Counted from the stretch's first letter, positions 6,385 to 31,330 are shown. The stretch: 64,000 nt of DNA from an uncultured Acidobacteriaceae bacterium (GCA_963703035.1 OY969780.1:969644-1033643), one strand, 5' to 3'. Program-made: numbers and translations. The notes: a model not told the origin generated them from the letters alone.

Positions 6385-7418
6385 GCGAGTGCGTGGCCGC
6401 CTTGGTCAACTACGGCCGGGAGCCCTTTTCGGTTGAGCTTCGCGAAGTGCCAGTACCGCAGATTAGCGATCGCGAGGTGCTGCTGCGTGTGGGTGCGGTG
6501 AGTGTGTGTGGCAGCGATCTCCACCAATGGGACGGCTCGGCGAGTTGGCACGTAAACTATCCCTGCATTTTGGGGCATGAATTCGCCGGAACAATTGCGA
6601 GAACCGGACGGAGTGTCTCAAGCTTTCGGGAAGGGGATCGCGTGGTGAGCGAAACGGCCGCAGTCATCGATGAGTCATCGTCGCTGAGCCGTAGCGGGCT
6701 CTACAATCTCGATCCGGCGCGGCTTGGCTTCGGCTACGGAGTGGATGGCGCGATGACACAGTACGTCCGCGTCCCCGAACGGTGTCTGCATCGCATTCCA
6801 GACAGACTCACGTTCGAGAAAGCTGCGCTTACGGAACCCTGTTGCGTTGCCTACAACGCCGTGTGTGTCAACGGACGCGTGCGGCCCGGTGATGGCGTTA
6901 TGGTGATCGGGCCAGGGCCGATCGGGCTGCTTTGCGCGCTGATGGCGAAGCTGAGCGGTGCCGGACGCGTGATCGTAGCTGGGTTGCCGCGCGATCAGCT
7001 CCGTTTCGAAGCTGCTCGAGCGCTCGGGGCTGATGTGGCGCTCGAGAGAGGCGTTCCCGAATACGTCGCGCAGTTAGGCGATGGTCTAGGCGTGGACATT
7101 GTTGTGGACGCGTCCGGCGCCTCGGCAACTCTACAGCTTGCCATGCAAGCGGTCCGGCCGGCCGGGCAGATCATCAAAGTAGGCTGGGGGCCGCAGCCGA
7201 TGCAGTTCAGCCTCGATCCAGCCGTGCAGAAGAACATCACCATTCAGGGCAGTTTCTCCCACAACTGGCCAGTGTGGGAGCGAGTGATTTCGATGATCGT
7301 CGCCGGGCAGATCAACCTCGAGCCGGTGATCAACCGCGTCGCACCGCTCTCAGAATGGCTCGACTGTTTCGAAAAAATGCACCGCGGCGAACTGGTGAAG
7401 GCCGTATTAACGCCGTAA
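6381..7418 (+). CDS. Zinc-dependent alcohol/polyol dehydrogenase (MDR family)
   Basis: Motifs VCGSDLH, GHEFAG and GPGPIGL (Rossmann). It overlaps the upstream gene by 4 nt. Confidence 0.85.
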   Translation: MSECVAALVNYGREPFSVELREVPVPQISDREVLLRVGAVSVCGSDLHQWDGSASWHVNYPCILGHEFAGTIARTGRSVSSFREGDRVVSETAAVIDESSSLSRSGLYNLDPARLGFGYGVDGAMTQYVRVPERCLHRIPDRLTFEKAALTEPCCVAYNAVCVNGRVRPGDGVMVIGPGPIGLLCALMAKLSGAGRVIVAGLPRDQLRFEAARALGADVALERGVPEYVAQLGDGLGVDIVVDASGASATLQLAMQAVRPAGQIIKVGWGPQPMQFSLDPAVQKNITIQGSFSHNWPVWERVISMIVAGQINLEPVINRVAPLSEWLDCFEKMHRGELVKAVLTP

Positions 7419-8317
7419 TGGCGCCCAAAATCTCCGCGTTTCCGAAATGCTATCTGGATGACATCGCGAATGGCCGGATGTCCGTCTTCGAGTGGATCGA
7501 GATGGCGAAGCAGCTCGATGCGGATGGACTCGAGATGTATACCGGCTTCTTCACGAGCTTGGATGACGAGTACATCAGCCGCGTGGGTGACGCGCTCGAT
7601 CGCGCCGAGTTTGCAATGCCGATGCTGTGCTGCTCTCCTGATTTCACGAATCCTGATCGCGAGCAACGAAAGCGCGAGGTTGCCCGTGAAGCGGAGATGA
7701 TTCGTATGACGCGCCGTTTAGGTGGGCCGCGTGCGGTCTGCCGTGTGCTGACGGGCCAGCGTTATCCCGAAGTGAGCTGGCAGCAGGGAAGGGAATGGGT
7801 GCTGTCTGCGATTGAGGAGTTACTTCCGGTCGCGAGAGAGCACGACGTGGTGCTTGGGCTTGAGAATCACTACAAGGATGGATTCTGGAAATACGCGGAG
7901 TTCGCGCAAGAGATGAGCCGGTTTCTTGACATCATCAATTCCATCGCTGATCGCAAGCATTTCGGAGCGCAGTACGATCCGTCAAACGCGATCGTTGCGG
8001 GCGATGATCCGATCGAGCTCTTGCGGGCGGTCGCTGGTCGTGTCGTCAGTATGCACGCGAGTGACCGTTACTTAGCCGAAGGAACTACGCTCGAAGGATT
8101 GCGCCAGAGTGAGGGAAGCCTGGGGTATTCCGCCAACCTGCGGCATGGCGTCACAGGCAAGGGACTGAACGACTACGACTCCATCTTTCGCATTCTCGCC
8201 GCGCACAAATATGAGGGCTGGATCAGCATCGAGGACGGCCTGAACGGAATGGCCGAAATGGCGGAATCCATCGCCTTTCTCCGCAACATGGGCAGAAAAT
8301 ATTTCCCGGATCGCTAG
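7418..8317 (+). CDS. Sugar phosphate isomerase/epimerase (xylose isomerase-like TIM barrel)
   Basis: The ATG at 7418 overlaps the TAA of the dehydrogenase (TAATG). GLENHY and SIEDG motifs are present. The ORF-track start at 7274 would overlap the previous gene by 145 nt. Confidence 0.8.
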   Translation: MAPKISAFPKCYLDDIANGRMSVFEWIEMAKQLDADGLEMYTGFFTSLDDEYISRVGDALDRAEFAMPMLCCSPDFTNPDREQRKREVAREAEMIRMTRRLGGPRAVCRVLTGQRYPEVSWQQGREWVLSAIEELLPVAREHDVVLGLENHYKDGFWKYAEFAQEMSRFLDIINSIADRKHFGAQYDPSNAIVAGDDPIELLRAVAGRVVSMHASDRYLAEGTTLEGLRQSEGSLGYSANLRHGVTGKGLNDYDSIFRILAAHKYEGWISIEDGLNGMAEMAESIAFLRNMGRKYFPDR

Positions 8318-16244: not shown

Positions 16245-17150
16245 CTAGTGTTCGCTTACGGTCGTGCTCGCGACTTCTTCGGGTGCCTCAGTTCCAGGTC
16301 CCTTGCGGGGGGGTGTTTCCGGTTCCTCGCTGGTTGCCAGACTTTCTGACATCAACTGCTCCGCATACTTCGGATCCAGATACTGGGTATACTCTTCTTC
16401 AACCGCGTGCTCGCCCGCCGCTTCGTCTTCGCTAACGATCTTTTCAGCGGCGAAATCCTGCTCGGTTGCGAGTGACCGTCCTTCGACCACCGCGTCGGCA
16501 ATCTTGGTTGTAAACAGCCGGATAGCCCTCAGCGCGTCATCATTGCCGGGAATGACGTAATCCACCTCATCCGGATCGCAGTTTGTATCAACAACGGCTA
16601 CGACGGGAATGCCCAGCTTGCGAGCTTCCTTCACTGCGATCGCTTCTTTATTCGAATCGATCACAAACAGCAAGTCCGGCAAGCCGTTCATGTCTTTGAT
16701 CCCGGCCAAATTTTGCTGCAGATGCTTGCGCTCGCGCTCCAGCCGCCCCACTTCTTTCTTCGCGCGGCCCTCGTAAGCATTGTCGGTCGACATCGCGTCC
16801 AGCTCTTTCAGACGCTTGATCGACCGCTGCACCGTCATAATGTTCGTCAGCAATCCGCCGAGCCAGCGCTGATTCACGTAATACTGAGAGCACCGCGTGG
16901 CCTCTTCAGCAACCGCCTCCTGCGCCTGGCGCTTCGTGCCGACAAACAGCACAGTCTTGCCCTGCGCCGCCATCTCGCCGACATAGCGCATGGCGTCTTT
17001 GAAAAGCTTCAGCGTCTTCTGTAGGTCGACAATATAGATTCCGTTACGTTCGCCGAAGATGTACTCCTTCATCTTCGGATTCCAGCGCTTGGTCTGGTGC
17101 CCGAAGTGAACGCCTGCTTCGAGCAGCTCTTTCATTGAAATTGATGGCAA
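16245..17150 (-). CDS. rpsB: 30S ribosomal protein S2 (with about 60-aa acidic C-terminal tail)
   Basis: [22 protein letters not shown] and the canonical S2 core. Confidence 0.97.
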
Positions 17151-17332
17151 CCTGCCTCCTTAATTCGTAACGGACCCGATCACGTAACTGCGCGGCCCAA
17201 AGCGGAATTTGCGCGTTGTCGATTGTGTCCGGTTTTGCCAAACGCAGGAGACGGCTTCTGCCGTTTGTACGTGTCTGCAAACACGCCCGAAGCGTCTGGC
17301 ACGGTTGAGTGTGGAACGAAACAAGCGAAGAA

Positions 17333-17731
17333 CTACCGCTTCGAGAACTGGAAGCGCTTGCGGGCACCCTTTTGTCCGTACTTCTTTCGTTCATGCGCGC
17401 GAGCATCTCGCGTGAGAAATCCAAGCTGCTTCAATTTGCCTCGCAGTTCGGAGTTAAATTCAATCAAGGCCCGGGCGATCCCAAGCCGCGCTGCCCCCGC
17501 CTGTCCACTGATTCCGCCGCCATGCGCCAGGATCAGGATGTCGAAGCGCTCCGCGGTCTCGGTCGCAAGCAGCGGCTGCCGCACATAAGCGCGAGCCGAT
17601 TCGCTCACAAAATAATTCTCAAAGGCGCGGCCGTTCACCGTGATCTGACCCTTGCCCGGCCGCAAAAACACGCGGGTTGTGGCGGTCTTACGCCTTCCTG
17701 TTCCTAACTGTTGTACTAACTTCGCTGGCAC
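17333..17731 (-). CDS. rpsI: 30S ribosomal protein S9
   Basis: [12 protein letters not shown] and C-terminal [17 protein letters not shown]. Confidence 0.97.
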
Positions 17732-17763
17732 TAAGATTCCTTTTCGTTATTTCCAATCTTTAT

Positions 17764-18198
17764 TCATTGGTTTAGCGCAAGCGGAACAGGCTTCTGCGCC
17801 TGATGCGGATGATGCTCGCCCGCGTAGACCTTCAGTTTCCGGTACATCTGCTTGCCGAGTTTGGTTTTCGGCAGCATTCCCGAGATCGCGAGCTCTACCA
17901 TGCGCTCTGGACGCGTTTCGCGCATTCGGTGCGCACGCGTCTCGATCAGGCCGCCAGGATAGCCCGTATGCCGCCGGTACATCTTTTGGCCCTCTTTGCC
18001 GCCCGTGAGCTTGACTTTGGCGGCATTTATAATGACCACGTGATCTCCGGTGTCAATCGACGGCGCATACATCGGCTTGTGCTTACCCATCAAAAGCGTT
18101 GCCGCGCGGCTCGCGACCCTGCCGAGGACCGCGGAATCGGCATCGATGACGTGCCAGGCACGTACGATCGCGTGCTTCGAGGGGACTTCGGTTTGCAT
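17764..18198 (-). CDS. rplM: 50S ribosomal protein L13
   Basis: WHVIDADSAVLGRVASRAATLLMGKHKP and HTGYPGG. Confidence 0.97.
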   Translation of the reverse strand: MQTEVPSKHAIVRAWHVIDADSAVLGRVASRAATLLMGKHKPMYAPSIDTGDHVVIINAAKVKLTGGKEGQKMYRRHTGYPGGLIETRAHRMRETRPERMVELAISGMLPKTKLGKQMYRKLKVYAGEHHPHQAQKPVPLALNQ

Positions 18199-18399
18199 AG
18201 ACAGACTGATTCTCTTCGCTTCGATGGCTCGAACACACTAGTCTAGCGAATCGGAAATTTGGGTGTCAAACCGCGGGTTAGGAGGTAGTGGCTCAATTTG
18301 AGAATCAAGACACTCAAGCGGTATCTGCTTTTCTCAATCCACAGGGATGCGCAAGAGTGCGAAATGGGACTCTGTGAAGGGGAGCACGGAAATTTAGCG

Positions 18400-18507
18400 C
18401 TACTTCAGCGATCGATACACTCTGCTCCAGCCGCCGAACTGGGCCAATTTGAACTCTTTCGTGAACTGCCTGCGAGACAATCCCGCTGGCTCAATTCTCC
18501 ATTCCAT
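18400..18507 (-). pseudogene. Possible relic of an IS3-family OrfA (HTH_Tnp_1) N-terminus
   Basis: Minus-strand translation MEWRIEPAGLSRRQFTKEFKLAQFGGWSRVYRSLK*. The RRxFTxEFK segment resembles IS3 OrfA N-termini. The frame then degenerates and stops. It lies in a lower-GC spacer. Confidence 0.25.
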
Positions 18508-18653
18508 GAATTTTGAGTAACGGCTCAATCCATTACGGGTGTCATTTCGCGAATATCGGCTTGAGCCCGATGCATTTTCAGTCTGATGGCGGTCGTAATC
18601 TCCGGTAATTGCCAGCTGCTCCGCGGGCGGCGCGCGCAACGTTACTGTTTCCG

Positions 18654-19796
18654 TTATTGCTCGACCTGAAGCTTGACCCAGCCCGGCAAGGTTGAGGGTT
18701 GCCCCCCCGCAAACACAATCCGCCGGGTCTTCGGAAACGGTACTCCTTCGCGAATTGCCTTTCCAAAGCTCGGGACTGCGCGCAGAATCTTGCGATATGA
18801 GGTCTGCTCCGTATCCAGAAAGCCGGCCTTCGAAACAAATCCGCTTCCCCACCCGAGGCACAGCAGGCATGCCTCGTTTGATTGCTGCGCACGCTCGAGT
18901 TCCTGGCCCAACCCCCGCACGCTCTCAGATACGCCCGCCAGCCCCGCCATTTCCGCATACCGTGCGTGAATCGCAAGCTGCGCCGCTGCATGCTGGTTTG
19001 CTGCCTCTAGAATCACCTTCGGCTCCGGCGTCGTGCGCCAGCCTAAAGCACGCATCACTTCCGGATTTTCATAAAATGTGCGTTCTTCCCACTCGCCGCC
19101 AAATCCACTTCCCGCCACAGCCATCTCCGCGAAAACCGCGGTCGCGGTCGAGATCCTCTCGCCTGGAACGCTTCCCCGACCGGCAACCTTCCATGACAGC
19201 TGCGGCTTTTCGGGCGACCGCGTATCGAGCGTCGACACACGCGTAAGAAATACTTTGAACGTCGATGCCGGAACCGGCTCACTATCCCCAGCGGCCACCA
19301 CCTTCATCTGCGAGCCGCCTGCGCTCACTTCCGCTGCCTCGCCAATTCGACGGCCCACCCGGTCGCCTTCAACGGTAGCTGCAATGCGCTCGATCGTGCT
19401 CGCTGTCCAGCGCGAAGAAATCACACTCGTCCGCAGCGCTCCCTTCAGCGCCGAGCCCCGCAGATACGCACCCCGGTAATCTGCGGCAAACGTCGGGATG
19501 AACAGCGATTCAGGCGGCGCGGAGTTCCAGATCGAGGTCAACCCTGCATCTTCAAATGGAATCCGGCGTTGTGAGAAATTCTGCGCGAACCCGCCCCAGG
19601 TCGCAAAATCCAGTCGGGTCGCCCGCCTCAGTTGCGCGAGGTACCCCTCCAGCCGGGGCCCGCGCGCCAGCAGCTTGAAGATCCTCGGCTGGTCGAGAAC
19701 GTTTACCTGATCCTTCCAGACCATGTAATCGATCGGTGAAAGCTCGCGCCCATCCCCGGCCAGAAGCGGCGTGAGAACTGTGATTCTATACTTCAC
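18654..19796 (-). CDS. csm5: Type III CRISPR RAMP protein Csm5 (Cas7-like)
   Basis: Motifs MKYRITVLTPLLAGDG, GSALKGALRT, CLGWGSGF, FPKTRRIVF and LPGWVKL, the classical Csm5 pattern. Confidence 0.8.
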   Translation of the reverse strand: MKYRITVLTPLLAGDGRELSPIDYMVWKDQVNVLDQPRIFKLLARGPRLEGYLAQLRRATRLDFATWGGFAQNFSQRRIPFEDAGLTSIWNSAPPESLFIPTFAADYRGAYLRGSALKGALRTSVISSRWTASTIERIAATVEGDRVGRRIGEAAEVSAGGSQMKVVAAGDSEPVPASTFKVFLTRVSTLDTRSPEKPQLSWKVAGRGSVPGERISTATAVFAEMAVAGSGFGGEWEERTFYENPEVMRALGWRTTPEPKVILEAANQHAAAQLAIHARYAEMAGLAGVSESVRGLGQELERAQQSNEACLLCLGWGSGFVSKAGFLDTEQTSYRKILRAVPSFGKAIREGVPFPKTRRIVFAGGQPSTLPGWVKLQVEQ

Positions 19797-20970
19797 TCAC
19801 CGCCTCCCCGCTCTTAATTTCCAAATCTTTGGTTGCCGGCTCGTCGCACGGGCGTGGCTCGAAGCCCTCGCTTGGCGTTTCAACCGCGCGCGGGTCTTCC
19901 AGGCCGTCTCGGTCTGGCAGTCTCAGCGCGAGCGCCAGCCCCGACCTGTACACCGGATGCGCGAAACCGTCCGGCGCCACATCCACGGCCGCGCCGATCG
20001 GCTCTGCCTCGGCCGCCATCACCGATCCCTCTACGATCATTCGTACGCGCTTCTTCTCGGTTGCCGGTCCCCGGCCGTTCTCTACGTAACCGCCGCGAAC
20101 GTCGGCCTCGTACGCGCCGGCCGCCCAATCGATGCGATCGCCCAACGCAGGCGAGTACAACGACAACAGCCAGTAAAGAGACGCTTCACTCCCCGTATCT
20201 GCCCTCGAGCTGCCGTTCTTCGGGGCGTGGCCCAGCTTCGGCAGAAATACATTCGGCCATCGTCCCTCTTGAAACTCGGGCGCTTCTGCCTGGCCCCAAC
20301 CAATCGTCCGCCGTCCTCCGAAACCGCTGTCCCCAAGCAGGCGAAATGCACCCCTCACCCGATCTTTCCAGACTGAAGCCACCCCCTCATCCGCGAATCT
20401 GGCGACCCCCCACAATCCCGAGCCCGGCTCAAACTCGATGCATCCGTGCGCGTCGACGTGCGCAGCACTTTGCGTTACGCGATCTACCGCCGCGCTGCTC
20501 CGTACGACCGTTCGGAATGGGCTTGCGTTGGGGCGATCCCGCCGCAACAAACAGCCGCTCTCGGCATCCGCAACCCATTGATCTGCCAGAACCGTTTCTC
20601 CTCTTAACATGGATTCAATGAGGCTGACCGGGACAAAACGTGCTGCCTTCCAGCGCACTTTTGTCAAAAACACCGGGCTTGACGTCGTTACTGATCCAGC
20701 CGTCGGCGGCCATAAGGTCGAAGGCGGTGTTGCAAACAACGTCTCAGCCTGATACGGAAAGAGCGAGCTGAATATGACTCCCGGTGCCGGCTTTCGCGCC
20801 GTCTCGTCTAACCACTCCTCTAAAAATCCCAAGTCCCGCATTGCGAGCGTGACTGCCGAATACAGCCGGTCGCTGCGGAATAGCGAGTCCACGCGATTCC
20901 GTCCGCCTTCTCCCGGACCGCTGCGCCACGCGCCGCGCGGCCGCAGCCGTATCAACATCGCCGGCTGCAT
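19786..20970 (-). CDS. csm4: Type III CRISPR RAMP protein Csm4 (Cas5)
   Basis: N-terminal FRSDRLYSAVTLAM (compare SDTLFSAL of Csm4/Cmr3), G-rich loop LGDSGFGGRRTIGWGQ, and YWLLSLYSP. Confidence 0.8.
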   Translation of the reverse strand: MQPAMLIRLRPRGAWRSGPGEGGRNRVDSLFRSDRLYSAVTLAMRDLGFLEEWLDETARKPAPGVIFSSLFPYQAETLFATPPSTLWPPTAGSVTTSSPVFLTKVRWKAARFVPVSLIESMLRGETVLADQWVADAESGCLLRRDRPNASPFRTVVRSSAAVDRVTQSAAHVDAHGCIEFEPGSGLWGVARFADEGVASVWKDRVRGAFRLLGDSGFGGRRTIGWGQAEAPEFQEGRWPNVFLPKLGHAPKNGSSRADTGSEASLYWLLSLYSPALGDRIDWAAGAYEADVRGGYVENGRGPATEKKRVRMIVEGSVMAAEAEPIGAAVDVAPDGFAHPVYRSGLALALRLPDRDGLEDPRAVETPSEGFEPRPCDEPATKDLEIKSGEAVSEV

Positions 20971-20973
20971 TTC

Positions 20974-21807
20974 TTACGCTAGTTTTTCGGCGAAATCGTC
21001 GCTGCCGGCCAATTGCTGCAGCGCCGGCAAGTCCGCGCTAGAAAGCAGCGTGCTCTCGTCCGCGCCCTTCGCGTAATAATCCTTGCTGCGCCACGTGAGT
21101 TTCAGGTCCGTAAGGCCGATGCGTCCACTACCCCGGCTCCCACCGCCTCCGAGAGCATCATCGGCCAGCAATCGCAACCCTTCCGCCACTCGCGCCAACA
21201 GCGGGCGGTCTTCGGGGCACAGCACATCCAGGACCATGCGAAAACGAAATCGTGCGCCGGCCGGAACGCGCTCGAGCGTGCGAGGATTCGCCTGTGACGT
21301 GATCCGGTCTACCGCGTTCTCGCTCTTCACTTCTGTCAATTCATCGTCGAGGTTCTCGCGCATTTGCGGCGTAATACTGTCCACCACAAGCGGCGCATCA
21401 TAAACTGTCAGCCGCGCCGGAGTCGCCATCCCGCCTTCAATCGCCTCTCCGGTCACCTTCTCTACGCGTCCCGGATTCCGCCCGAACAAAACGCAAATCT
21501 CATCGTCCGGCCGGTCGCTCTGATGAATTCGCACCTCCTGTCCTTTCCGCTTCGATAGATAGACCAACTCGCCCGGTACAGCCAGCCCCAGAGTCTGTTC
21601 GAGCAGCGAGCGCAACCGGCCACGCAATGAGCTGCCCGGTATATAGGGAATCCCGAACGCGTCCTTTATCACCGGATTGTCCGCGCCCCCAATCTCGAGC
21701 GACCCTTTTCCCGCGCCGATGTGCAATCCTGTCTGGCACTGAATCTCGCCTTCCAAAATCAGCTTGCCCAAAAATGTCAATTCCGTAGCTGCGCTATGAG
21801 AGCTCAT
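20974..21807 (-). CDS. csm3: Type III CRISPR backbone RNase Csm3 (Cas7)
   Basis: GLHIGAGKGSLEIGGADNPVIKDAFGIPYIPGSSLRGRLRS and C-terminal LGGGGSRGSGRI. Confidence 0.88.
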   Translation of the reverse strand: MSSHSAATELTFLGKLILEGEIQCQTGLHIGAGKGSLEIGGADNPVIKDAFGIPYIPGSSLRGRLRSLLEQTLGLAVPGELVYLSKRKGQEVRIHQSDRPDDEICVLFGRNPGRVEKVTGEAIEGGMATPARLTVYDAPLVVDSITPQMRENLDDELTEVKSENAVDRITSQANPRTLERVPAGARFRFRMVLDVLCPEDRPLLARVAEGLRLLADDALGGGGSRGSGRIGLTDLKLTWRSKDYYAKGADESTLLSSADLPALQQLAGSDDFAEKLA

Positions 21808-21831
21808 GCGTTATCAATCCTGTTCTGCGCC

Positions 21832-22398
21832 TTACTCGTTATACGCGATAATCGCTTCAAATAAATCCCGAAACCGCTCATACCCCCGCGTATCGTTTTT
21901 CCGCGTGACTTGCAGCAGCAGCCGCTCAAGCGCATCCAGGCTCCGCAGCGAATGCCGCGCAATCGTGTACGCAAGGCGCGCCCGCACCATCACAAACTCG
22001 TGCTGGCGTTCATTCTCCGGAGCCCGCGTCGCCCGCCGAACAGCGTTGTATAACCGCCGCAGCTGGCTCTTTGTACCCGAATCCATATCGCGCATCCGGC
22101 TCACCACCACGTGCGCCTGATTGTCCAGATACAAGCTGTCGTTGATCAGTTTTTCCAAATCGATCTCCGGTGGACCTTCGCCGCGCCGCTCACCTGCACC
22201 ACGCGGACCGCCTCCGAAACGTTGCTCCCGGCCGCGATCTCCAGGTCTATCACCGCCGCGCTCGCCTCGGCCGTCTCCTCCTCCTCGTTCCTGTGACCCG
22301 CGCTCGTTTCCTCTCGGGCCGCCTCCGCGGTTCTCGCGCGGCGGCCGATTCTCTGCGCCCTTGCGCTCTTCCGTCTTCTTCTCGTCAATCTCAGGCAT
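21832..22398 (-). CDS. csm2: Type III CRISPR small subunit Csm2 (Cas11) with RGG-rich N-terminal tail
   Basis: C-terminal helical half SQLRRLYNAVRR...ARLAYTIARH...FRDLFEAIIAYNE fits Csm2. Residues 1-80 are Arg/Gly/Glu low complexity. Confidence 0.72.
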   Translation of the reverse strand: MPEIDEKKTEERKGAENRPPRENRGGGPRGNERGSQERGGGDGRGERGGDRPGDRGREQRFGGGPRGAGERRGEGPPEIDLEKLINDSLYLDNQAHVVVSRMRDMDSGTKSQLRRLYNAVRRATRAPENERQHEFVMVRARLAYTIARHSLRSLDALERLLLQVTRKNDTRGYERFRDLFEAIIAYNE

Positions 22399-22432
22399 TT
22401 CAAATTCCTTTCTGCCAAACCAGCCGCTCTCA

Positions 22433-23911
22433 CTAGCTTCCGATTGCGAGACGCGCCCACTCCAATCCCACCCGCGCCGAAGCCCGCAGCTTGAAACCCG
22501 CCGTCTTCTTCCCTACCAGGTTTGTTATCACCGTGTTTCGGATATGGTTCAGCTCTTTCCCGCGCGCTTCCGGAATCACGCGCGAGAGCCGCATGGCCGT
22601 CCGCCAGGGCTTATCGACGCGAATCGCTTTATTGCTCCGGGTGGCACGCGCCGAAAAAGCCTCTCGATAAATCGCCGCCAAGTCATTGATGTACTCGGGC
22701 GAATATCCAAACTCCCGCACCAATCGCACCAGCCCCGCCTTCAGTTCTTCCGCATCGCCCAACCGCTTCCATTCGAGAGTTCTCCCGAATAAGTGAAACG
22801 TGCCGGCTTCTGTCGCCTTGGCCGCCCGCAATTGTGTCGCGGCTTCTTCAAACACCATCGCCGCCGGGCTATCAGCCTCGGGCGCAATCGCCAGCGCCAT
22901 GCTGATCGTCTTTCCTTCCAAGCTCGGAAATGCTTCGGCATGCTGCTCAATGAATTTCTTGAACAGCCGCTCAATTTCCTGCGCCAGCAGGGTCAGCGCA
23001 TCCCATGTCCCGATCAGCGCGAACTCCTCGCCGCCGCGATATAAGATCGTCACGTTGCGGAAGAAATCCGGCATCGTGCACAGCAGCGCCAGTTCGCCCG
23101 CGAAGAACTCCTTAGATGACGCCGAGAGCTGTATGTGCTCTTCAATCGACCCGGCGCCTTTCAACAACGCGTCGAACTGATCGACGTCACCCCGCAGCAC
23201 TCCCCATCGCGCGGCGCCTTCCGCTCGTTGCGCCAAATCCGGCAACGATGCCGGGCGAGCGCCACTGTCATCCATAGCGAACCGGCGCGGAAAGAGAATT
23301 GCCTCTTCATCCAACCCGGGCTGATCGATCAACCGCCAGACATGCTCTCCTTCATCCCAGCTAAGCTGTGCCGGAGCGCCGCTCGACCAGCCAACCTTCG
23401 ACGCAGAAATCAACTTCTCAGCAAAATGCCCAAAATAGCTCTCCGCATCGGGATCCCGCGCTTCCACAAACGTCGCGAAAAAGCCATCTGAGCCGTTCAT
23501 CGCCAGAGGCGTCGCAGCCTTCGCGAATAACGCATCATCAAGGCGTTTCCGAGCTACTGGCCACGCGCCCAAATTTTCGGTGCTCGCCCAAATCAACCGC
23601 AAAGCGCTCCCGGAAAGCTTCATCACAGCGCCACTCGCGCGTTCGAGAAACGCATTCGCACGCGGAATATCTTCTTCAGCGAGAACCAGAAGGAATTGTT
23701 CAGCGCTGCTCGATCCCAACAGCATTCGCGACAGCTTCAGTTCTGCCAACAGCGCTCGCGGCAGAACCTCGCAGAACAGTGTCAGCCACGCGCAACGGCC
23801 CATCAGATCAGCCGTCTGTTCAACCGCGCCGCCCAGCTGCCCGGAGGATCGTGCCGTCAGGAACTCTTCGGCGCCGAGCAGTTGAGCTTGCAGAAAAACT
23901 TGCAGCGACAT
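22433..23911 (-). CDS. cas10: Minimal Cas10/Csm1-like protein (492 aa; Palm/cyclase domain with GGEEF; no HD domain, no zinc finger)
   Basis: Motifs RWGVLRGDVDQFD, ILYRGGEEFALIGTWD, ISMALAIAP and AKATEAGTFHLFG follow the Cas10 Palm2 pattern. It is the first gene of the csm operon. No H-D dyad region or CxxC pairs are present. Confidence 0.72.
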   Translation of the reverse strand: MSLQVFLQAQLLGAEEFLTARSSGQLGGAVEQTADLMGRCAWLTLFCEVLPRALLAELKLSRMLLGSSSAEQFLLVLAEEDIPRANAFLERASGAVMKLSGSALRLIWASTENLGAWPVARKRLDDALFAKAATPLAMNGSDGFFATFVEARDPDAESYFGHFAEKLISASKVGWSSGAPAQLSWDEGEHVWRLIDQPGLDEEAILFPRRFAMDDSGARPASLPDLAQRAEGAARWGVLRGDVDQFDALLKGAGSIEEHIQLSASSKEFFAGELALLCTMPDFFRNVTILYRGGEEFALIGTWDALTLLAQEIERLFKKFIEQHAEAFPSLEGKTISMALAIAPEADSPAAMVFEEAATQLRAAKATEAGTFHLFGRTLEWKRLGDAEELKAGLVRLVREFGYSPEYINDLAAIYREAFSARATRSNKAIRVDKPWRTAMRLSRVIPEARGKELNHIRNTVITNLVGKKTAGFKLRASARVGLEWARLAIGS

Positions 23912-24029
23912 GAGACCAGGTCGTAGCGGCCCGCAACCTCGCGGGCTTGGCGTGTTCAGACGTGAATGCTTCCAAGCCTAACACACGGGCTTACCCCCGT
24001 CAGCCTTATCGTAAGAGACACTAGACTGC

Positions 24030-24929
24030 GTGCGCGGCCGGACCACTTTTATCACGCGGCATCCCGTCGTCAGCTATTTCGTGCTGACGTTCGCGGTCTC
24101 TTGGACAGCCGCGCTTTGTGTGGCGGCTCCCTATCTCATCCGCCAGGCCCCACTTCCGAAGCTGACCGGCATCCTAATGTTCCCGGCTATGCTTCTCGGC
24201 CCTAGTTTCGCGGGTATCATCTTGACCGGGATTGTAGACGGAAAACGCGGCTTGCGCGATCTCCTCTCCCGCTTATCGCTCGCGCGCATCGCAGGACGCT
24301 GGTACGCAGCTCTCCTGATCCCCCCGCTTCTGGTCCTGACCGTTCTCTTCTGTTTGACAGCCCTCGTATCTCCCGCTTACCGTCCCAATTTCTTTCTTAT
24401 GGGTGTCTTCTTCGGCGTCCCTGCGGGATTCGTTGAAGAAATCGGCTGGACAGGCTATCTGTTCCCCAAAATGGCTTCGCGGCACAATGCATTGGCTTCG
24501 AGCATCGGATTAGGATTGCTATGGAGCGCCTGGCATTTACCCGTCATCAATTTCCTGGGCGCCGCCACACCCCACGGTTCTTACTGGTTTCCGTTTTTCC
24601 TCGTATTTGCGGTAGCTATGACGGCCATGCGCGTGCTGATCTGCTGGATCTACACCAACACGAAGAGCGTCCTTATAGCGCAGCTCATGCATGTCAGCTC
24701 GACAGGCTCCCTGGTCGTGTTTAGCGCTCCGCGTGTGATACCAGCGCAAGAAGTCATATGGTACGGGCTTTACAGCGTTGCGCTATGGCTCACGGTCGGC
24801 ATCGTTATCAGACGTTACAGCAAGCGTCTAACGCGCCAGACGGCCCAGTGCGCCGCCTCGGGAGCAACTGAGATCAATGCCTCCACAGCGCCGCAGCAGC
24901 CTCTTGCACCCCCACCCGAAATCCGATAA
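24030..24929 (+). CDS. CPBP family intramembrane glutamic endopeptidase (CAAX protease/Abi)
   Basis: Polytopic membrane protein with motif 1 VEEIGWTGY and motif 2 LLWSAWHL. GTG start. Confidence 0.8.
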   Translation: MRGRTTFITRHPVVSYFVLTFAVSWTAALCVAAPYLIRQAPLPKLTGILMFPAMLLGPSFAGIILTGIVDGKRGLRDLLSRLSLARIAGRWYAALLIPPLLVLTVLFCLTALVSPAYRPNFFLMGVFFGVPAGFVEEIGWTGYLFPKMASRHNALASSIGLGLLWSAWHLPVINFLGAATPHGSYWFPFFLVFAVAMTAMRVLICWIYTNTKSVLIAQLMHVSSTGSLVVFSAPRVIPAQEVIWYGLYSVALWLTVGIVIRRYSKRLTRQTAQCAASGATEINASTAPQQPLAPPPEIR

Positions 24930-24964
24930 TGTAACGCAAGTACCTATCAAAATAGGAGCTACTC

Positions 24965-26119
24965 ATGCCCGATCCGGAAATAACCCCAGCAACCGCCGTC
25001 GCGCCCGTCTCTCCCGCGGTTCAGTTGGATGCCACTACGCCTGCCGAAAGCATGCTGTCACTGCTGCAATCGGCTTACGCAGCGTTTCAGCTGCAAAATG
25101 TCCCAAGTTCGAAACAGGTTGCCACTCTCGCCAAGGCGCTCTTTGACTCTGCCAAGGTCACCGCTTCGCCCGTCGAAGTTCTCGTCCTCGAACTGCTCAA
25201 AAATCAGGTATGTCTGTTCGAGCCCTTCACGAGAGCCGTCGTCCGGCAAGGAGAAGGTCGCTTCTCCGACGCCCTCAAAGAGATTGACACGGCGCTCCGC
25301 ATCGCCCAAGGATCCATCGCAAGCGTAGATCAGTACGCCCGCACGCCTGATCACGACGCGGATCTTATTGAAACCCTCCAGCCGACTTCGCAGTTGATGT
25401 TGATCCTCCTCAAAGGCTACAAAGCTACAATTCGCGCGGATGTTGTTGGCTTTCAAGGAAGGATTTCCGAGTATCTCGACCTCCTCAGGGAAGCCATAGC
25501 CGAGTTCAACAAGGGAAACGATCTTCCGCCCACCGACGATCCTTCTGTCCTGATGGTTGCTGGAATTGTCTCCAGCCTTGCTGATCGCCTCGAGACTCGC
25601 GTCAGGTTTTTCGAACTGACACCCGGACCGCCTCCGGCCGTGCCAACCGGAAAGAAAATCTTTCTCATTCACGGAAAGAACGAGGCGAAGCGGCGGGAAC
25701 TCGGCGACCTCCTGAAAGATAAACTAAATCAGCAAGTCGTCATTCTCGAAGACCAGCTCGACGCTGGAATGACGATTATCGAGAAATTCACGAAGTACGC
25801 ATCCGAGTGTTGCTATGCCTTTGCCTTGCTGACCCCCGATGATTTCGTCAAGAGCGGTGAGACTAGCATCTTTCAGGCGCGGCCCAACGTCCTGTTTGAG
25901 ATCGGCTGGTTTTACGGCAAATTCGGTCGCGATCGGGTGATGCTGGTTCTCCAGGAAGGAACCGATATCCCTTCTGATCTCAGCGGGATCGTATACGTCA
26001 AATTTAATGCTAGCGTCGGTGAGCAATTCCTGCGTTTCCAGGAAGAGCTCACACGTATCGGCCTCATTGGCCAGAAGCCCGCACGCAAGCCGCGCAGCCG
26101 CACCGCCGTCACGCAGTAA
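24965..26119 (+). CDS. TIR-like domain protein (CAP12/Pycsar-effector type TIR at the C-terminus, unassigned helical N-terminal domain)
   Basis: Residues about 230-350: KKIFLIHGKNE...AFALLTPDD...ARPNVLFEIGWFYGKFGRDRVMLVL...IPSDLSGIVY. This matches the pattern of the predicted nucleotide-binding TIR-like family. Confidence 0.75.
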   Translation: MPDPEITPATAVAPVSPAVQLDATTPAESMLSLLQSAYAAFQLQNVPSSKQVATLAKALFDSAKVTASPVEVLVLELLKNQVCLFEPFTRAVVRQGEGRFSDALKEIDTALRIAQGSIASVDQYARTPDHDADLIETLQPTSQLMLILLKGYKATIRADVVGFQGRISEYLDLLREAIAEFNKGNDLPPTDDPSVLMVAGIVSSLADRLETRVRFFELTPGPPPAVPTGKKIFLIHGKNEAKRRELGDLLKDKLNQQVVILEDQLDAGMTIIEKFTKYASECCYAFALLTPDDFVKSGETSIFQARPNVLFEIGWFYGKFGRDRVMLVLQEGTDIPSDLSGIVYVKFNASVGEQFLRFQEELTRIGLIGQKPARKPRSRTAVTQ

Positions 26120-26140
26120 AAACGCGGGATAATTCACCGA

Positions 26141-26899
26141 ATGATCATCTTCATCACAGGAGCCACAGCCGGTTTCGGAAGGGCCATGGCGCGTCGATTT
26201 GCACCCGACGGCGCGAAAATCATCGGAACCGGCCGGCGCAAGAACCGCCTCGAAGAACTCAAGCAGGAGCTCGGTACGAATTTTTGGCCGCTGCCCTTCG
26301 ATGTCGGTGATCGTAAGCAGGTCGAACGCGCCATATCGAGCTTGCCTCCCGAATTCGCCGCGGTCGATGTCCTGGTCAACAATGCGGGAGGCGCTCTCGG
26401 CCTCGATCCGGCTTATAAGGCGAATCTCGACGATTGGGACGCCATGGTCGATGCCAACGTGAAAGGTGTCCTCTATTGCACTCGCGCCCTGCTGCCCGGC
26501 ATGGTCGAACGCAACCGCGGGCACGTCATCAACATGGGCTCCTCAGCCGCCGAATGGCCCTATCCGGGCGGCAATGTCTACGGCGCAACCAAGGCGTTCG
26601 TCCATCAATTCAGCATGAACCTCCGCGCCGATCTGTTTGGAACCGAGGTTCGCGTCACCGACGTCCAGCCAGGTCTAGTCGCCGGCACTGAATTCTCTGA
26701 AGTGCGTTTCAAAGGCGATAAGAAGCGGGCGCAGTCGGTCTACGAAGGAACCCAACCATTAACTGCGGAGGACGTCGCCGAAACCGTGTATTGGGTTGCG
26801 ACCCGTCCTCCGCATTTCAACGTAAACACAATCCAGATCATGCCCGTCGGCCAAGCCTTCGGCCCCCTGCCCGTAAAGAAACAGAACCGGGAGCCGTAG
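26141..26899 (+). CDS. SDR family NADP-dependent oxidoreductase (YdfG-like)
   Basis: ITGATAGFG, NNAG and a YxxxK-type catalytic region (YGATKAF). Confidence 0.88.
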   Translation: MIIFITGATAGFGRAMARRFAPDGAKIIGTGRRKNRLEELKQELGTNFWPLPFDVGDRKQVERAISSLPPEFAAVDVLVNNAGGALGLDPAYKANLDDWDAMVDANVKGVLYCTRALLPGMVERNRGHVINMGSSAAEWPYPGGNVYGATKAFVHQFSMNLRADLFGTEVRVTDVQPGLVAGTEFSEVRFKGDKKRAQSVYEGTQPLTAEDVAETVYWVATRPPHFNVNTIQIMPVGQAFGPLPVKKQNREP

Positions 26900-26913: not shown

Positions 26914-27945
26914 CTAAAAACTGCGCTGCGGCCGATACCCCGGCCGCGCCCGAATTTTATATTTCCGCATTGCATCCGGCGTCAGCTGAATGCTGATCCT
27001 GCGGAATCCCTCATTCGGGTTCGGTTGTGGATAGTAAGTAACTGTATAGCTATTCCCGAGATCTTCACGAATCAGCTCAAACGCTTCCACCTGCGTTTGC
27101 CACGTCTTCGCAAAATAGCTCTTCCCGCCCGTGGTCGCCGAAATACGCTTAAAAATTGAGCTCGATATCGGATCGTTCGTCACCGCGCTGGTCGAGATCA
27201 CATAAATCGGAATGCCTTCATCCTCAGCCACGGCGCGCACATCATCGGGCGCCACCATGCTCGCATTATCGGGTCCGTTAGAAAACACGATCACCACTTT
27301 TCGCCCCGGCACTCTTGCAGCGTCACGCAGCGTCAGCAGAAGACAATTGTAAAGAGCCGAATCGTCTCCTGCCACCGCCTTTCGCAACCCGGCAATCGCC
27401 GTTGAGCGGTCACGGCTCAGCGGAACAGCGCGGTTCAAGTTCCGGCTATACGTGTAAACAGCGATTGAATCGGCGCGATCCAAGCCGCGAATGAAATCGG
27501 CGATCGCATCCGATGCGTACACGAATCCCCGGTACATGTAGTTGCTCGTATCGAACAGAACAAACACATTCGTGCCCGTCATCGCATCCGACCGCAGGTC
27601 CACAACCCCCGGCCCCGGATTGCCGTTACCCACGTTTGCCCTTCCCGCAGGAAGCGGCTTGGTCTGCCCGTTGTCAAGCACCTGCATCGGCGCCCGCGTG
27701 CCTTCTGCGAACGTGGCCATTTTCTGCGGAATCTCGTCTTCGTATATTTTGAAGTCCGCCGGCTTCAGCCCGTTCACGTAATGACCCTTCTGGTCGGTAA
27801 CCGTGAAGCTCAGGACCACCATGTCCACCTTTACGTGAAAGGTAGTCTGATCCTGGTCTTGCGCCTGTACCCGGCCATGCATCCACACAGCCGCCCCGCA
27901 TCCCACCAACCCTATCGCCCCCAAAACACGCCCGAATCTCTTCAC
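26914..27945 (-). CDS. VWA domain protein (acidobacterial VWFA-related family), secreted
   Basis: Signal peptide, then FHVKVDMVVLSFTVTDQKGHYVNGLKPADFKIYEDE. vWA core VFVLFDTSNYM. Confidence 0.8.
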   Translation of the reverse strand: MKRFGRVLGAIGLVGCGAAVWMHGRVQAQDQDQTTFHVKVDMVVLSFTVTDQKGHYVNGLKPADFKIYEDEIPQKMATFAEGTRAPMQVLDNGQTKPLPAGRANVGNGNPGPGVVDLRSDAMTGTNVFVLFDTSNYMYRGFVYASDAIADFIRGLDRADSIAVYTYSRNLNRAVPLSRDRSTAIAGLRKAVAGDDSALYNCLLLTLRDAARVPGRKVVIVFSNGPDNASMVAPDDVRAVAEDEGIPIYVISTSAVTNDPISSSIFKRISATTGGKSYFAKTWQTQVEAFELIREDLGNSYTVTYYPQPNPNEGFRRISIQLTPDAMRKYKIRARPGYRPQRSF

Positions 27946-27955
27946 CTTGCCCTTC

Positions 27956-30900
27956 CTAATTCTGTGATGTATTCAGTCCCGCGCGCTGGTTGCTGCGCTG
28001 CTTGACGTTCTCTCCTACCGTATGCAGAGAGCGCAAAACTGCCGGCCAGTCTTCCAAATGCGTTGCAAAAATATTCTCGATCATCGAACGGTTCCACTCC
28101 GGTACGTAGGAGTCCAGCTCCTCGATCGGCGCACCCACTTCATCCGCCAGCGTGGCGTAGTAGAGGTTGTCCGATTCCCAGCTCTCCGCAAGAATCCGGC
28201 TTGAGTAGCCCATCAGCGCTGGAAACGTGCGCAGATACAAAAGGCCCGGCCGGTATGAGTGCGTGAGCGTCGGTTTCGGCGTGCCGAATGAGCGCGCCAT
28301 CGCATCGCGCGTCAGGTCCGGATTGTTCTGCTCCGCCAAAGCCGCAATCGCGCTCGATGCTGCGTCGGGGGAAACGTCTCGAAGAGCCGCATCCTGCGCC
28401 AGTGCGTAGAGTTCTGACGTCGGCACTTGCGAGACTGCCTTCCGGAAATCTCCCGCATTCAGTTCATCTCGCAGGCGCTCCACTCGCGCAGGCGTCGCGA
28501 ACCGCCCATACGCTTCAAAAACCCGCCCCTGCAGTGACGGATCCAAAGCGGCTGCCGCCAGCAGGTTCCGCCCCCGCTGGACGTGCAGCGACACCCAGCG
28601 CACTTGCTCCGCTTTCACATTCCTCCATCTGGTCACCGTCACATCCACAATCATCTGCGGCACCAGATCTGCCCAAATCAGCGCTTGCTCGCGCTTCGGC
28701 GTCAAAAAGTTTTGCTCGGCTTCGGCGATCGCGTAGGGAATCGCCACCAGCGATCCCATCAGCCGTCCGCCCGAGCTTGCCGGCCATCCACTTCCAGTAA
28801 TTTCCGTCGGGCGCCACGAAGCTGGTGTCTCCGGAGGACCAATGAAATCGTGGCCTCGCACGAACAGCGGATTCGTCAACAGTAACTGCGCCCCCGCCGG
28901 AGCATAGTAACAGTACACAAGCCCTACCAAAGAGTCCCGCAGGAATGGCGCAAGCAGCGTCTGCGCATCCTTCTTTCCAGAGTTCTTCGCCAAGTCCTCG
29001 AAGCTAACCTTTTTCTCCTCGCCAATGTGTCGTTCGCTCCAGTAACCCACTGACATCGCGCTCTTCTCCGCCGATGAAAGCGAGCCGCGCAGCGATTCGG
29101 TATCCTCCAGACGCCCCAGTTGCTCGTCGATTTTCTTCATCGTCTTCGGGTCCAGCGAGCCCTTCCCCATCAGATCCGCCACCGTGAATAGGCTATCCAG
29201 AGGAATCAAACGCTGCGCGTCAAAAATGCGCAAGAAACTTTCCGATGGCGAGTAAGCTCCGGGCCCTACCGGCCCGTGCACCTTGCCGACTAGCAGTTCG
29301 ACCATTTGCTCGTGCAGGGATCCGCTCGGCCGAACCTGTACCGCCGATAACAGCGCCTCTACTCCCGACCGCCCCGCCGCGAACACCTCCGCCTCCTGCT
29401 TCACGTGATCAAAAGGTTCGATCACCTTCGCAAAGGTTGCGTCGACTGAATTCGGCCCAATTGCATTCTGGCGCGCGAGGATATCCCACAGCTCGATTAG
29501 CGCCTGCACGGTCCCGATCGCGTCGGCTTTCGCGAGCCCATCATGCATGGCCGAGAGGTCCGTGCACGTATCCAGATAGTGCTCGATCGACGCCTCGCTT
29601 AACAGGGGCTCGTCCGCGAACACGACATACTGTGCCCCATAGCGTCTATAACCCGCTATCAGCCGCGCTGCCAGTTGCGCCGACATCGGCTTCGGCCGGT
29701 TGCGGTCCACATCGTTCAGCGTCAGAAAGATTTTTAGCGGTTCATTTTCAACCGTCTTCCGGCTGAGCCCGAACAGCGCTTCCAAAAGATCATCGCTCGT
29801 TTTCCACGAACTCGCGGATCGCGTCAGCCGGCCGTCATACTTCCCATGCGGGTGCTTGATGAACAGATTCCGCCAAACATCCAGGTTGCCCGGAACGTGA
29901 GGCTGTCCGTTCGCATCAATTCGGAGTGACGTGGTCAGCAATAACAACTCGGTGCTCGAGCGGAAAACAGGTCGCGCCGGTCCCGGGCTGGTGATCTTCC
30001 CGCGTAGCGCTTCATAAAACCGCTTCATGCGCTCCGGTTGCGCCAAATAGGCCACAGTCGGCCCGTTCATTCGCGATAGCGCATCGAAGTAACTCGCCAG
30101 CCATCCGTCGTCGACAGCGATCAGCTTGTCGAAAAACGCCCCCGGGTTGCTCGGCGGCACTCCCACCAGCGAAGCCCAAACTTTCGGCGAGCCAGGCACA
30201 GCGGCAGCCCCGTTCCGGATCTGAAACATGCTGCCGAAGAAATCTAAGACGTGTGCGTAAATCTTGAGCTTGGCCGCCGATGCTTCCCGGCGCAAAGCCT
30301 CCGCCGTCTCGCGATCTAACCGCGATAGTCCCAGATACAAGCGGCACAGCGATGGATCGGAAAGGAACGCGTCGACAAAATCGGCCTGCCCCGTCTTCCC
30401 CAGCGCCGACAACCAGTACTCCGCGTTATATAAAACAGGCACCTGCGTGGACGCAAACGCCAACTCGAAACGCCGGTTCGCGCGAAGGTCCTGCTCCAGC
30501 TGCGTTAACGGAAATCCCGAATCGATCGTGAGAAAAGCCCGTGTCGCATTCACCGTCTCGAGAACGATGTCCGCCCCGCACGATCCGCGCATGCGATACC
30601 CCAGCGTCTTCAGCAACCGCCCCGTTTCTTCGCTGTCGCAAGTCGGGATCACGATCTTCCGGTCCTTGTTCGTCATCGCCTGTAATTCCCGAGCCTGTCC
30701 TATATACCGGATCAGCAATCGCAGGTATTCGGTCTGTACCAAAGCTTCATTCCCCGAGGCTTCGTAACCATTCGTCACAACATTCCGCGCCAGAGACGGA
30801 AGCAGATCTTCAGGCGCGAGTTCGGGTGACAGCGCCGCCATGCGCGCAAATGAAGAAAGCGGGCCCGGAATCGTCACTGTGCTGAAGAGGTTCACGGGCG

Positions 30901-31330
30901 TCTTTCTCGCCGGCATGTTCAAATCGTCGCCGCCCGCCCCCCGGTACTGCTTCAGATCGCTCGAGAGTTCTGTGTCCCGTCCTTGCATGAAATCCAACAG
31001 GACCGCTTGCCGCAATGCCAATTTCCGCTTCGCCGGATCATTCTCTTCGGCAGCCCACTTCAAGTACGCGTCCCTGCTCCCCGGATCGCCATGCCGCTCG
31101 AGAAATTCCGCTAGAGCAGCCGCGCCTGCGCTGTTTCCCGGCTTCGCCGCTGCTTCTTCCAGAACCGACCGCGCGCCCGGCAAGTCGCCGCTCGATTCGT
31201 GCTGCATCACCTGTTGCTGCAAGTCCCCTGGTGAGGCGCCGCGCATCGGCCCCATCGCAATGCAGCCGAAAGTCGCGGCCAGCGCGACGTAGAAAAAAGT
31301 TCTTCCGGCAGAATCAGCTTTCATACCCAC
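27956..31330 (-). CDS. Large secreted hypothetical protein, 1124 aa
   Basis: Uninterrupted ORF with an N-terminal hydrophobic signal-like segment. It ends 10 nt before the VWA gene. No family recognised. Confidence 0.65.
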   Translation of the reverse strand: MGMKADSAGRTFFYVALAATFGCIAMGPMRGASPGDLQQQVMQHESSGDLPGARSVLEEAAAKPGNSAGAAALAEFLERHGDPGSRDAYLKWAAEENDPAKRKLALRQAVLLDFMQGRDTELSSDLKQYRGAGGDDLNMPARKTPVNLFSTVTIPGPLSSFARMAALSPELAPEDLLPSLARNVVTNGYEASGNEALVQTEYLRLLIRYIGQARELQAMTNKDRKIVIPTCDSEETGRLLKTLGYRMRGSCGADIVLETVNATRAFLTIDSGFPLTQLEQDLRANRRFELAFASTQVPVLYNAEYWLSALGKTGQADFVDAFLSDPSLCRLYLGLSRLDRETAEALRREASAAKLKIYAHVLDFFGSMFQIRNGAAAVPGSPKVWASLVGVPPSNPGAFFDKLIAVDDGWLASYFDALSRMNGPTVAYLAQPERMKRFYEALRGKITSPGPARPVFRSSTELLLLTTSLRIDANGQPHVPGNLDVWRNLFIKHPHGKYDGRLTRSASSWKTSDDLLEALFGLSRKTVENEPLKIFLTLNDVDRNRPKPMSAQLAARLIAGYRRYGAQYVVFADEPLLSEASIEHYLDTCTDLSAMHDGLAKADAIGTVQALIELWDILARQNAIGPNSVDATFAKVIEPFDHVKQEAEVFAAGRSGVEALLSAVQVRPSGSLHEQMVELLVGKVHGPVGPGAYSPSESFLRIFDAQRLIPLDSLFTVADLMGKGSLDPKTMKKIDEQLGRLEDTESLRGSLSSAEKSAMSVGYWSERHIGEEKKVSFEDLAKNSGKKDAQTLLAPFLRDSLVGLVYCYYAPAGAQLLLTNPLFVRGHDFIGPPETPASWRPTEITGSGWPASSGGRLMGSLVAIPYAIAEAEQNFLTPKREQALIWADLVPQMIVDVTVTRWRNVKAEQVRWVSLHVQRGRNLLAAAALDPSLQGRVFEAYGRFATPARVERLRDELNAGDFRKAVSQVPTSELYALAQDAALRDVSPDAASSAIAALAEQNNPDLTRDAMARSFGTPKPTLTHSYRPGLLYLRTFPALMGYSSRILAESWESDNLYYATLADEVGAPIEELDSYVPEWNRSMIENIFATHLEDWPAVLRSLHTVGENVKQRSNQRAGLNTSQN

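Follow-up and report, generated by a model that had tools for sequence, protein, structure and literature searches.

In a window of 64,000 nucleotides from an uncultured Acidobacteriaceae bacterium (GCA_963703035.1 OY969780.1:969644-1033643; "the window" denotes this whole stretch, and all positions are counted from its first letter), we characterized a gene that lies next to a CRISPR-type csm operon and encodes a protein of 384 residues. In this protein, a rare, undescribed and sensor-like helical domain is joined to a well-known clade of TIR domains, the CAP12/Pycsar clade (Table 1). By analogy with its relatives, the TIR domain is a probable NAD-destroying immune enzyme, for which we infer NAD+ cleavage. 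The most likely mechanism, with about an even chance of being the right one, was that of a stand-alone, self-contained defence protein combining a sensor with an NADase.

The TIR domain and its predicted active site

The C-terminal part of the protein matched PF10137 (CAP12-PCTIR_TIR) over residues 231-348 (E = 2.5e-33; 115 bits versus a cut-off of 24.7; profile positions 1-118 of 119), a score that is far above chance expectation. An earlier reading of the same DNA, made from the sequence alone (hereafter the sequence-only reading), had placed the protein in this family, and this assignment was borne out: the motifs it quoted were found at residues 230-240 (KKIFLIHGKNE), 286-293 (FALLTPDD), and 335-344 (IPSDLSGIVY), and ARPNVLFEIGWFYGKFGRDRVMLV corresponds to residues 305-328. 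Among the PADLOC models, PDC-S35 gave the best match (E = 5.6e-42), followed by the CBASS TIR effector (1e-18) and PycTIR (2e-11); the matches of five PDC-S35 models, of the CBASS TIR effector models and of PycTIR were all confined to residues ~228-367. In a profile search against the PDB (profile of 35 members), 7un8 (Cap12/TIR-STING; E = 2.9e-13), 9lmq, and 8jsj (PycTIR) were the sole significant solved relatives, and the top Foldseek matches for the TIR part were the TIR-STING structures 9lmq and 7un8 (E ~1e-5).

The full-length AlphaFold2 model, with a mean predicted local distance difference test score (pLDDT) of 84 and a predicted template modelling score (pTM) of 0.58, exhibited the alternating strand-helix order of TIR domains. 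Strands at residues 294-297 and 300-303 formed a predicted beta-hairpin between the central strands; a hairpin of this type is distinctive of TIR domains of the CAP12/Pycsar clade (PMC13142454).

In the HMMER alignment, the RPNVLFE and PSDL stretches of the window protein stood opposite RDNVVFE and PTDL of SfSTING, and R306, N308, E312, and D338 were aligned with the identical SfSTING residues R78, N80, E84, and D110, respectively (the hit chain is numbered 8 residues off the SfSTING numbering of the paper, an offset established by counting along the alignment). In SfSTING, R78 and N80 contact NAD, E84 is catalytic, and D110 of the opposing TIR completes the site (PMC9402430). Glu312, which the sequence-only reading had singled out as the candidate catalytic residue, kept this predicted role through its alignment with E84. 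Across 35 aligned family members, R306, N308, and E312 were invariant and D338 was kept in at least 90%. The TIR enzyme thus looks catalytically competent, as far as its predicted active site is concerned. Oligomerisation is reported to turn CAP12/Pycsar TIRs into active NADases (PMC13142454, PMC9402430).

Cap12/TIR-STING (SfSTING 7UN8; 9LMQ), a member of the same PF10137 clade, was therefore the best match among solved structures in both sequence and fold. SfSTING differs from the window protein in its sensor, which is a C-terminal STING domain binding cyclic di-GMP made by a cGAS/DncV-like nucleotidyltransferase (CD-NTase) of the same operon; the candidate sensor of the window protein is an N-terminal, all-helical solenoid, with no cyclase partner and no cyclic-oligonucleotide-binding domain. 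PycTIR of Pycsar (8JSJ) belongs to the same TIR family and has the same domain order, with a regulatory N-terminus and a C-terminal TIR, but no pyrimidine cyclase (PycC) adjoins the window gene and the PADLOC PycTIR model covers the TIR part alone. PDC-S35, a single-gene and untested PADLOC candidate, has the closest TIR among the PADLOC models, likewise C-terminal; however, the match was limited to positions 117-255 of 264, and its N-terminal region of ~115 residues is not the helical domain of 200 residues. A search limited to the accessible literature returned no paper mentioning PDC-S35, and nothing on SfSTING E84A or on TPR-S proteins with TIR domains.

Related PF10137-type TIRs were also encoded by 135 viral or prophage contigs of IMG/VR, with 31-44% identity among the 80 that were kept (L098-L177). 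The helical N-domain was absent from all these PF10137-bearing contigs. Since these contigs carry the TIR without the helical domain, the PF10137 TIR clade is, on sequence evidence, common on mobile elements and paired there with other N-terminal regions.

The helical domain and its family

No Pfam or PADLOC match was obtained on the first ~225 residues, and relaxing the Pfam threshold to E ≤ 5 yielded just TPR_2 (E = 0.24) and DUF6859 (E = 0.094). When residues 24-226 were modelled alone with AlphaFold2 (21 homologues), seven long helices were predicted with a pLDDT of 93.7 and a pTM of 0.88, in agreement with the helical character that the sequence-only reading had given to this region. Foldseek searches of the domain against the PDB and BFVD gave no match at E < 0.01; the best geometric overlaps in the PDB were with designed helical repeats and with the TPR-like core of Bro1 domains (TM score 0.57-0.59). 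Similarly, designed repeats, MIT and TPR proteins were returned by the PDB sequence profile, all non-significant, and a hidden Markov model (HMM) of the domain gave weak multi-stretch matches to TPR_12 proteins. As modelled, the N-domain is an alpha-solenoid with weak TPR-like similarity.

Two other identities were considered and rejected. Nothing significant in Pfam, PADLOC, the PDB profile, or Foldseek (PDB and BFVD) pointed to a CARF, SAVED, STING, or cyclic nucleoside monophosphate-binding domain, and on this point Pfam, PADLOC, and Foldseek agreed with the sequence-only reading, which had recognized no CARF, SAVED, or cyclic-nucleotide-binding domain. A TPR-S domain was rejected at an hhalign probability of 0.1. 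The conserved motifs seen in the alignment of the N-domain were QN, Q-x-EGRF, IRAE-x-VGYQG, and ADRLETR, and its most conserved residues were polar or glycine, namely Q44, E97 (in EGRF), G165 (in GYQG), and R212 (in ADRLETR).

A search with the N-domain HMM, exhaustive over 1.84 billion cluster representatives (E ≤ 1e-3), identified the helical domain in 68 proteins (clusters at 50% identity). Among the matches listed, most of these proteins were 350-445 residues long and carried the helical domain at the N-terminus; PF10137 was found at the C-terminus of all five scanned proteins of this type. The order was reversed in P0130, with an N-terminal TIR_2 domain (PF13676) and a C-terminal helical domain, and in P0122 the helical domain followed a weak N-terminal DUF4062 match, which spanned the full length of the profile and, at E = 2.9e-4, stayed below the cut-off. 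DUF4062 has been reported as a NIR NADase effector domain (bioRxiv 10.64898/2026.09.04.749371). Because it is also fused to TIR_2 and to a DUF4062/NIR-like region, the helical domain seems to behave as a module that recurrently partners NADase-type domains. A further protein, P0149, exhibited the helical domain with an N-terminal extension of 167 residues of no assigned family.

To locate the family in genomes, one genome per species was scanned, which gave 20 loci with full-length relatives and 60 TIR-only loci, with flanks of up to 10 kb per side. The full-length loci were found in Acidobacteriota, Smithella, Dechloromonas, Azoarcus, Verrucomicrobiota, several Bacteroidota, and the archaeon Methanothrix. 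Overall, the helical-TIR family is patchily distributed across bacterial phyla and one archaeon, mostly as a solitary gene. All-against-all clustering of 323 neighbouring open reading frames (ORFs) revealed no gene common across the family beyond close relatives, and at least five loci (L007, L018, L020, L003, and L016) had no same-strand neighbour within 150 bp. Among 133 neighbours within 4.5 kb, a family-count scan found defence genes scattered among housekeeping genes; these included mad3/mad8, AriA, phospholipase effectors, SAVED-TIR, AbiLi, methyltransferases, TIR_2, and TPR-S. The contexts differed from one member to another, P0017 being surrounded by MazE/PIN and housekeeping genes and P0027 having a patatin gene 36 nucleotides upstream.

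A proposed sensor-NADase and its alternatives

In the mechanism that we favour, a stand-alone sensor-NADase, the N-terminal solenoid would act as both sensor and autoinhibitory module and the C-terminal TIR would degrade NAD+. By extension from SfSTING/Cap12 and PycTIR, the protein would be inactive as a monomer; the helical domain would bind an infection cue, most likely a phage protein or a small molecule; the bound cue would drive TIR-TIR assembly and thereby complete the composite active site; and the assembled TIRs would deplete NAD+, so that the infection is aborted.

Several points weigh against this mechanism. The defence role is proposed by analogy, from family membership and nearby defence genes; several family loci are flanked by housekeeping genes, and the enrichment in nearby defence genes is modest and unquantified. 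The family was absent from PLSDB plasmids, GenBank phages, and IMG/VR contigs, where defence genes often occur. Autoinhibition is a conjecture, because the orientation of the two domains is uncertain in the full-length model (pTM 0.58). Moreover, 5 of the 20 full-length loci, representing three independent lineages, exhibited tight operons with TPR-S (PF20308) effector proteins, and since three lineages show this pairing, a signal-producing TIR would fit better than a terminal NADase. The TPR-S proteins were 16-30 nucleotides from the next gene and either adjoined the family member or were separated from it by one gene. In L001 (8283-9878), an alpha/beta-hydrolase-TPR-S protein was encoded on the same strand, 27 nucleotides upstream of the family gene; in L013 (4424-9835), a DUF7379-LCAT-CHAT-TPR-S protein of 1804 residues was encoded on the same strand, 16 nucleotides upstream; and in L014, L015, and L019, a downstream patatin gene was followed by a gene for a TPR-S protein of 681 residues, also on the same strand (L014:11119-14331, L019:4274-7497). 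A weak TPR-S-like neighbour was also observed at one TIR-only relative (L072).

These operons would suit a Thoeris-like system in which the protein, or at least part of its family, is a ThsB-like, signal-producing TIR: the helical domain would sense infection, the TIR would make a signalling nucleotide from NAD+, and a separate effector would respond, a role that in the window could fall only to the upstream CPBP membrane protein or to a gene located elsewhere. We regard this as possible but unlikely. In addition to the tight TPR-S arrangements and the patatin gene upstream of P0027, it is favoured by two points from a study of Thoeris: the type VIII effector ThsI has a TPR domain that is a proposed sensor of cyclic ADP-ribose and had earlier been predicted to act in TIR signalling, and the screen of TIR families for Thoeris systems included PF10137 (bioRxiv 10.64898/2025.12.03.692087). 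The window protein resembles ThsB, as found with TPR effectors (type VIII, ThsI), in having a TIR with a putative sensor region. However, the window contains neither a TPR-S protein nor a second TIR, the neighbours of the gene being CPBP and a short-chain dehydrogenase/reductase (SDR), and most family loci lack a candidate partner. No relative of the window CPBP protein was found at other family loci, and the two of its close homologues whose contexts were inspected sit among housekeeping genes. The TIR belongs to the effector-type PF10137 clade, whose characterised members are NAD+-depleting effectors, the N-domain is unrelated to TPR-S, and the TPR-S proteins could be separate systems of the same island.

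The housekeeping surroundings of several family loci and the absence of the family from plasmid, phage, and viral-contig collections would also suit a protein with no immune function (a domesticated remnant, or else an NAD-linked protein with a regulatory or stress role), whose adjacency to Cas10 would be functionally meaningless. This we consider improbable. The helical-domain-TIR gene is estimated to be under strong purifying selection in both domains, with a ratio of nonsynonymous to synonymous substitution rates (dN/dS) against the orthologue in L086 (the closest relative of the csm locus) of 0.09 for the whole gene (N-domain, 0.07; TIR domain, 0.06). Together with the fully conserved NADase site, this selection argues for an active enzyme; defence genes typically show such a patchy, cross-domain distribution and such variable contexts; and the closest relatives of the TIR domain are found in defence effectors and candidates. 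The synonymous rate of the TIR gene against this orthologue was 1.15, about double the 0.52-0.64 obtained for the flanking genes (CPBP, SDR, cas10, and csm3); noise from saturation, codon usage, or a history of its own could account for this.

The csm operon and the inserted genes

The csm1-5 operon (18654-23911, minus strand), coding for Cas10, Csm2, Csm3, Csm4, and Csm5, begins 1054 bp from the TIR gene, on the opposite strand. The sequence-only reading had described a cyclase-competent-looking Cas10 1 kb away, and the distance held. The cyclase motif of this Cas10 is GGEE, not GGDD. The protein has 492 residues, with the second palm domain present and no HD domain. Among its 120 closest homologues (the top 120 of 1669 matches at E ≤ 1e-5; 64-83% identity; the named ones acidobacterial), the motif was GGDD in 76, GGED in 25, and GGEE in 2. 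Neither a CRISPR array (two repeat finders) nor cas6 or cas1/2 was found in the 64-kb window. The 10 genes between 18654 and 31330 gave no match to a CD-NTase model, and Cas10 was the sole cyclase among the window neighbours.

A metagenome scan with Cas10 gave only 7 loci, so that the count on the Cas10 side is small. Flanks were readable at seven related short-Cas10 loci, three of them in assembled genomes and four on metagenome contigs, and these showed the same synteny, with genes for a protein of ~1100 residues, a VWA protein, and an SDR, divergent from cas10-csm2-5. The SDR gene lay directly beside cas10, without a TIR gene, in six of the seven loci (L087, L088, L089, L090, L092, and L094, all devoid of the CPBP and TIR genes). 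Only in L086, the closest relative (Cas10 83% identical), were SDR and cas10 separated by the CPBP and TIR genes. In blastn comparisons, homology to L087, L088, and L092 ended at ~23957-23992 on the cas10 side of the window and restarted at 26138-26141, at the start of the SDR gene; these relatives have 76-140 bp between SDR and cas10 where the window has 2.1 kb. Because homology breaks at these boundaries in all three, the TIR gene is, by alignment, part of a lineage-specific insertion and no component of the Csm locus.

The sequence-only reading had suggested that the N-terminal domain could be a new sensor for a Cas10 product. As a type III CRISPR ancillary effector, the protein would sense through its helical domain the nucleotide (a cyclic oligoadenylate (cOA) or similar) of the adjacent short Cas10, and the TIR NADase would thereby be activated. 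The distance of 1 kb, the GGDD motif kept by most of the Cas10 family, and the retention of both genes in the window and L086 are in favour of this proposal. Moreover, neither a CARF nor a SAVED responder was seen in the vicinity of these Csm loci, which leaves them short of a responder, and there are known type III systems with TIR effectors (TIR-SAVED and TSR1; bioRxiv 10.64898/2026.09.16.751991). The latter resemble the window protein in being TIR NADases encoded beside a type III complex; however, TIR-SAVED and TSR1 (TIR-SAVED-Crn4) sense cyclic triadenylate via SAVED, whereas both SAVED and CARF domains are missing from the window protein, whose family is no regular companion of type III loci. 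Indeed, tblastn with the window Cas10, Csm2-5, CPBP, and VWA proteins gave no match within 10 kb at any of the 20 full-length or 60 TIR-only loci. Relatives of the window Csm proteins should have been detectable there, because the window Csm3 is typical (PADLOC E = 1e-59), and Cas/RAMP families were not among the top-listed families of the 133 neighbours. Co-occurrence in the other direction was limited to one of the seven short-Cas10 loci, that of the closest relative, and in the window the gene sits in the mapped insertion. The proposal thereby fails the refuting test that the sequence-only reading itself had named. The N-domain is unlike any known cOA sensor, and the window has no CRISPR array, cas6, or cas1/2. 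We therefore hold activation by the adjacent Cas10 to be extremely improbable.

It is just as hard to credit the broader proposal that the adjacent HD-less, array-less Cas10 makes a nucleotide for which the seven-helix domain is the new receptor, and that relatives elsewhere answer this signal, or one related to it, produced by unlinked genes. A new receptor for a Cas10 signal is the reading most clearly disfavoured by the comparative evidence, and the adjacency of TIR and Cas10 is best explained by clustering of defence genes rather than by signalling. The fallback offered by the sequence-only reading, an independent defence gene, describes the protein better than a Cas10 sensor.

The stand-alone sensor-NADase also has to be set against a two-gene module, in which the CPBP and TIR genes were acquired together and their products cooperate, for instance through tethering of the TIR protein to the membrane or its release by proteolysis. 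The CPBP gene encodes a CPBP/CAAX (Rce1-like) membrane-protease homologue and is separated from the TIR gene by 35 nucleotides with no terminator-like site; the two genes were inserted together, and both the window and L086 have kept the pair; in L086, they were called as a single product of 699 residues (5789-7888, minus strand). A true fusion in L086 was rejected: the alignment explains the read-through by two small indels, of 4 nucleotides and 1 nucleotide, in the unconserved CPBP tail, with the TAA stop, the AGGAG, and the ATG intact, so that the single product is a probable artefact of assembly or gene calling, or else an incidental read-through. Homologues of CPBP with 65-76% identity were very numerous (the named ones in Acidobacteriaceae), but none of the 120 best had a TIR domain, the two contexts inspected were unrelated, and no relative of the window CPBP was found by tblastn at any of the 80 TIR loci. 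CPBP was thus rejected as a regular TIR partner. A functional CPBP-TIR pairing is not supported, and we rate the two-gene module as highly improbable.

Other features of the locus were recorded. The TIR-gene ORF has an ATG start and 384 codons, with its stop at 26117-26119, and a record identical to the encoded protein exists at NCBI. Residues 366-384 (26060-26116) form a disordered, basic C-terminal tail, KPARKPRSRTAVTQ; K/R-rich tails were also observed in several homologues, such as the Methanothrix members (KRKKTSKRSAKRPAKKRN). Csm3 and the Csm2 C-terminus are conserved among close homologues (83-96% and 96-98% identity, respectively), and the Csm module looks vertically inherited and has possibly been repurposed. 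On the other side of the operon, the Csm loci of relatives carry an AAA_16/AAA_22 ATPase gene. Downstream of csm5, the window has rplM, rpsB, tsf, pyrH, and frr (18198-18654, 16245-18198), while an AAA_16 ATPase gene and a GFO_IDH gene are found in L086-L088; on the csm5 side, the synteny of the window is thus unlike that of its relatives. Beside the SDR gene, the region 26914-31330 (minus strand) encodes a VWA-domain protein of 343 residues and a protein of 1124 residues without Pfam or PADLOC match; both are kept in L086, L087, L088, and L092, whose flanks reach that far, with 71-95% identity.

Table 1. Features of the helical-domain-TIR locus in the window
Feature	Position	Strand	Evidence
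Gene for the 384-residue helical-domain-TIR protein	24965..26119	+	ORF listing and translation
Seven-helix, weakly TPR-like solenoid (predicted), residues 26-218; undescribed family	25040..25618	+	AlphaFold2, Foldseek, Pfam, alignment
CAP12/Pycsar-clade TIR domain, residues 229-365, with predicted beta-hairpin at residues 294-303	25649..26059	+	PF10137, PDB profile, Foldseek, AlphaFold2
Codon of Glu312, the predicted catalytic residue; the predicted NADase site also includes R306, N308, and D338	25898..25900	+	HMMER alignment to SfSTING
AGGAG ribosome-binding site, 6 nucleotides 5' of the TIR-gene ATG	24954..24958	+	Read from sequence; kept in L086
CPBP/CAAX (Rce1-like) membrane-protease homologue, co-inserted, 35 nucleotides upstream of the TIR gene	24030..24929	+	PF02517, E = 3.5e-11
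Lineage-specific insertion of 2.1 kb (CPBP/CAAX and TIR genes) in the divergent SDR-cas10 intergenic region	23993..26140		blastn versus L087, L088, and L092

The locus calls for caution, as adjacency to Cas10 in one genome was no evidence of a functional link; here the question was resolved by the synteny comparison. Were the helical domain a Cas10 receptor after all, it would be the first all-helical sensor of the cOA type and the protein the first identified effector of this Csm lineage. If the protein is a stand-alone sensor-NADase, as we favour, its helical domain would be one more sensor module among those that bacteria and archaea couple to NAD+-destroying TIRs. This domain is small, confidently folded, without described relative, and found almost only with NADase-type domains, and is therefore a tractable case for learning what such sensors recognize. 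The recurrent pairing with TPR-S proteins offers a concrete test of whether a TIR of the CAP12/Pycsar clade can produce a signal, beyond acting as a terminal effector.

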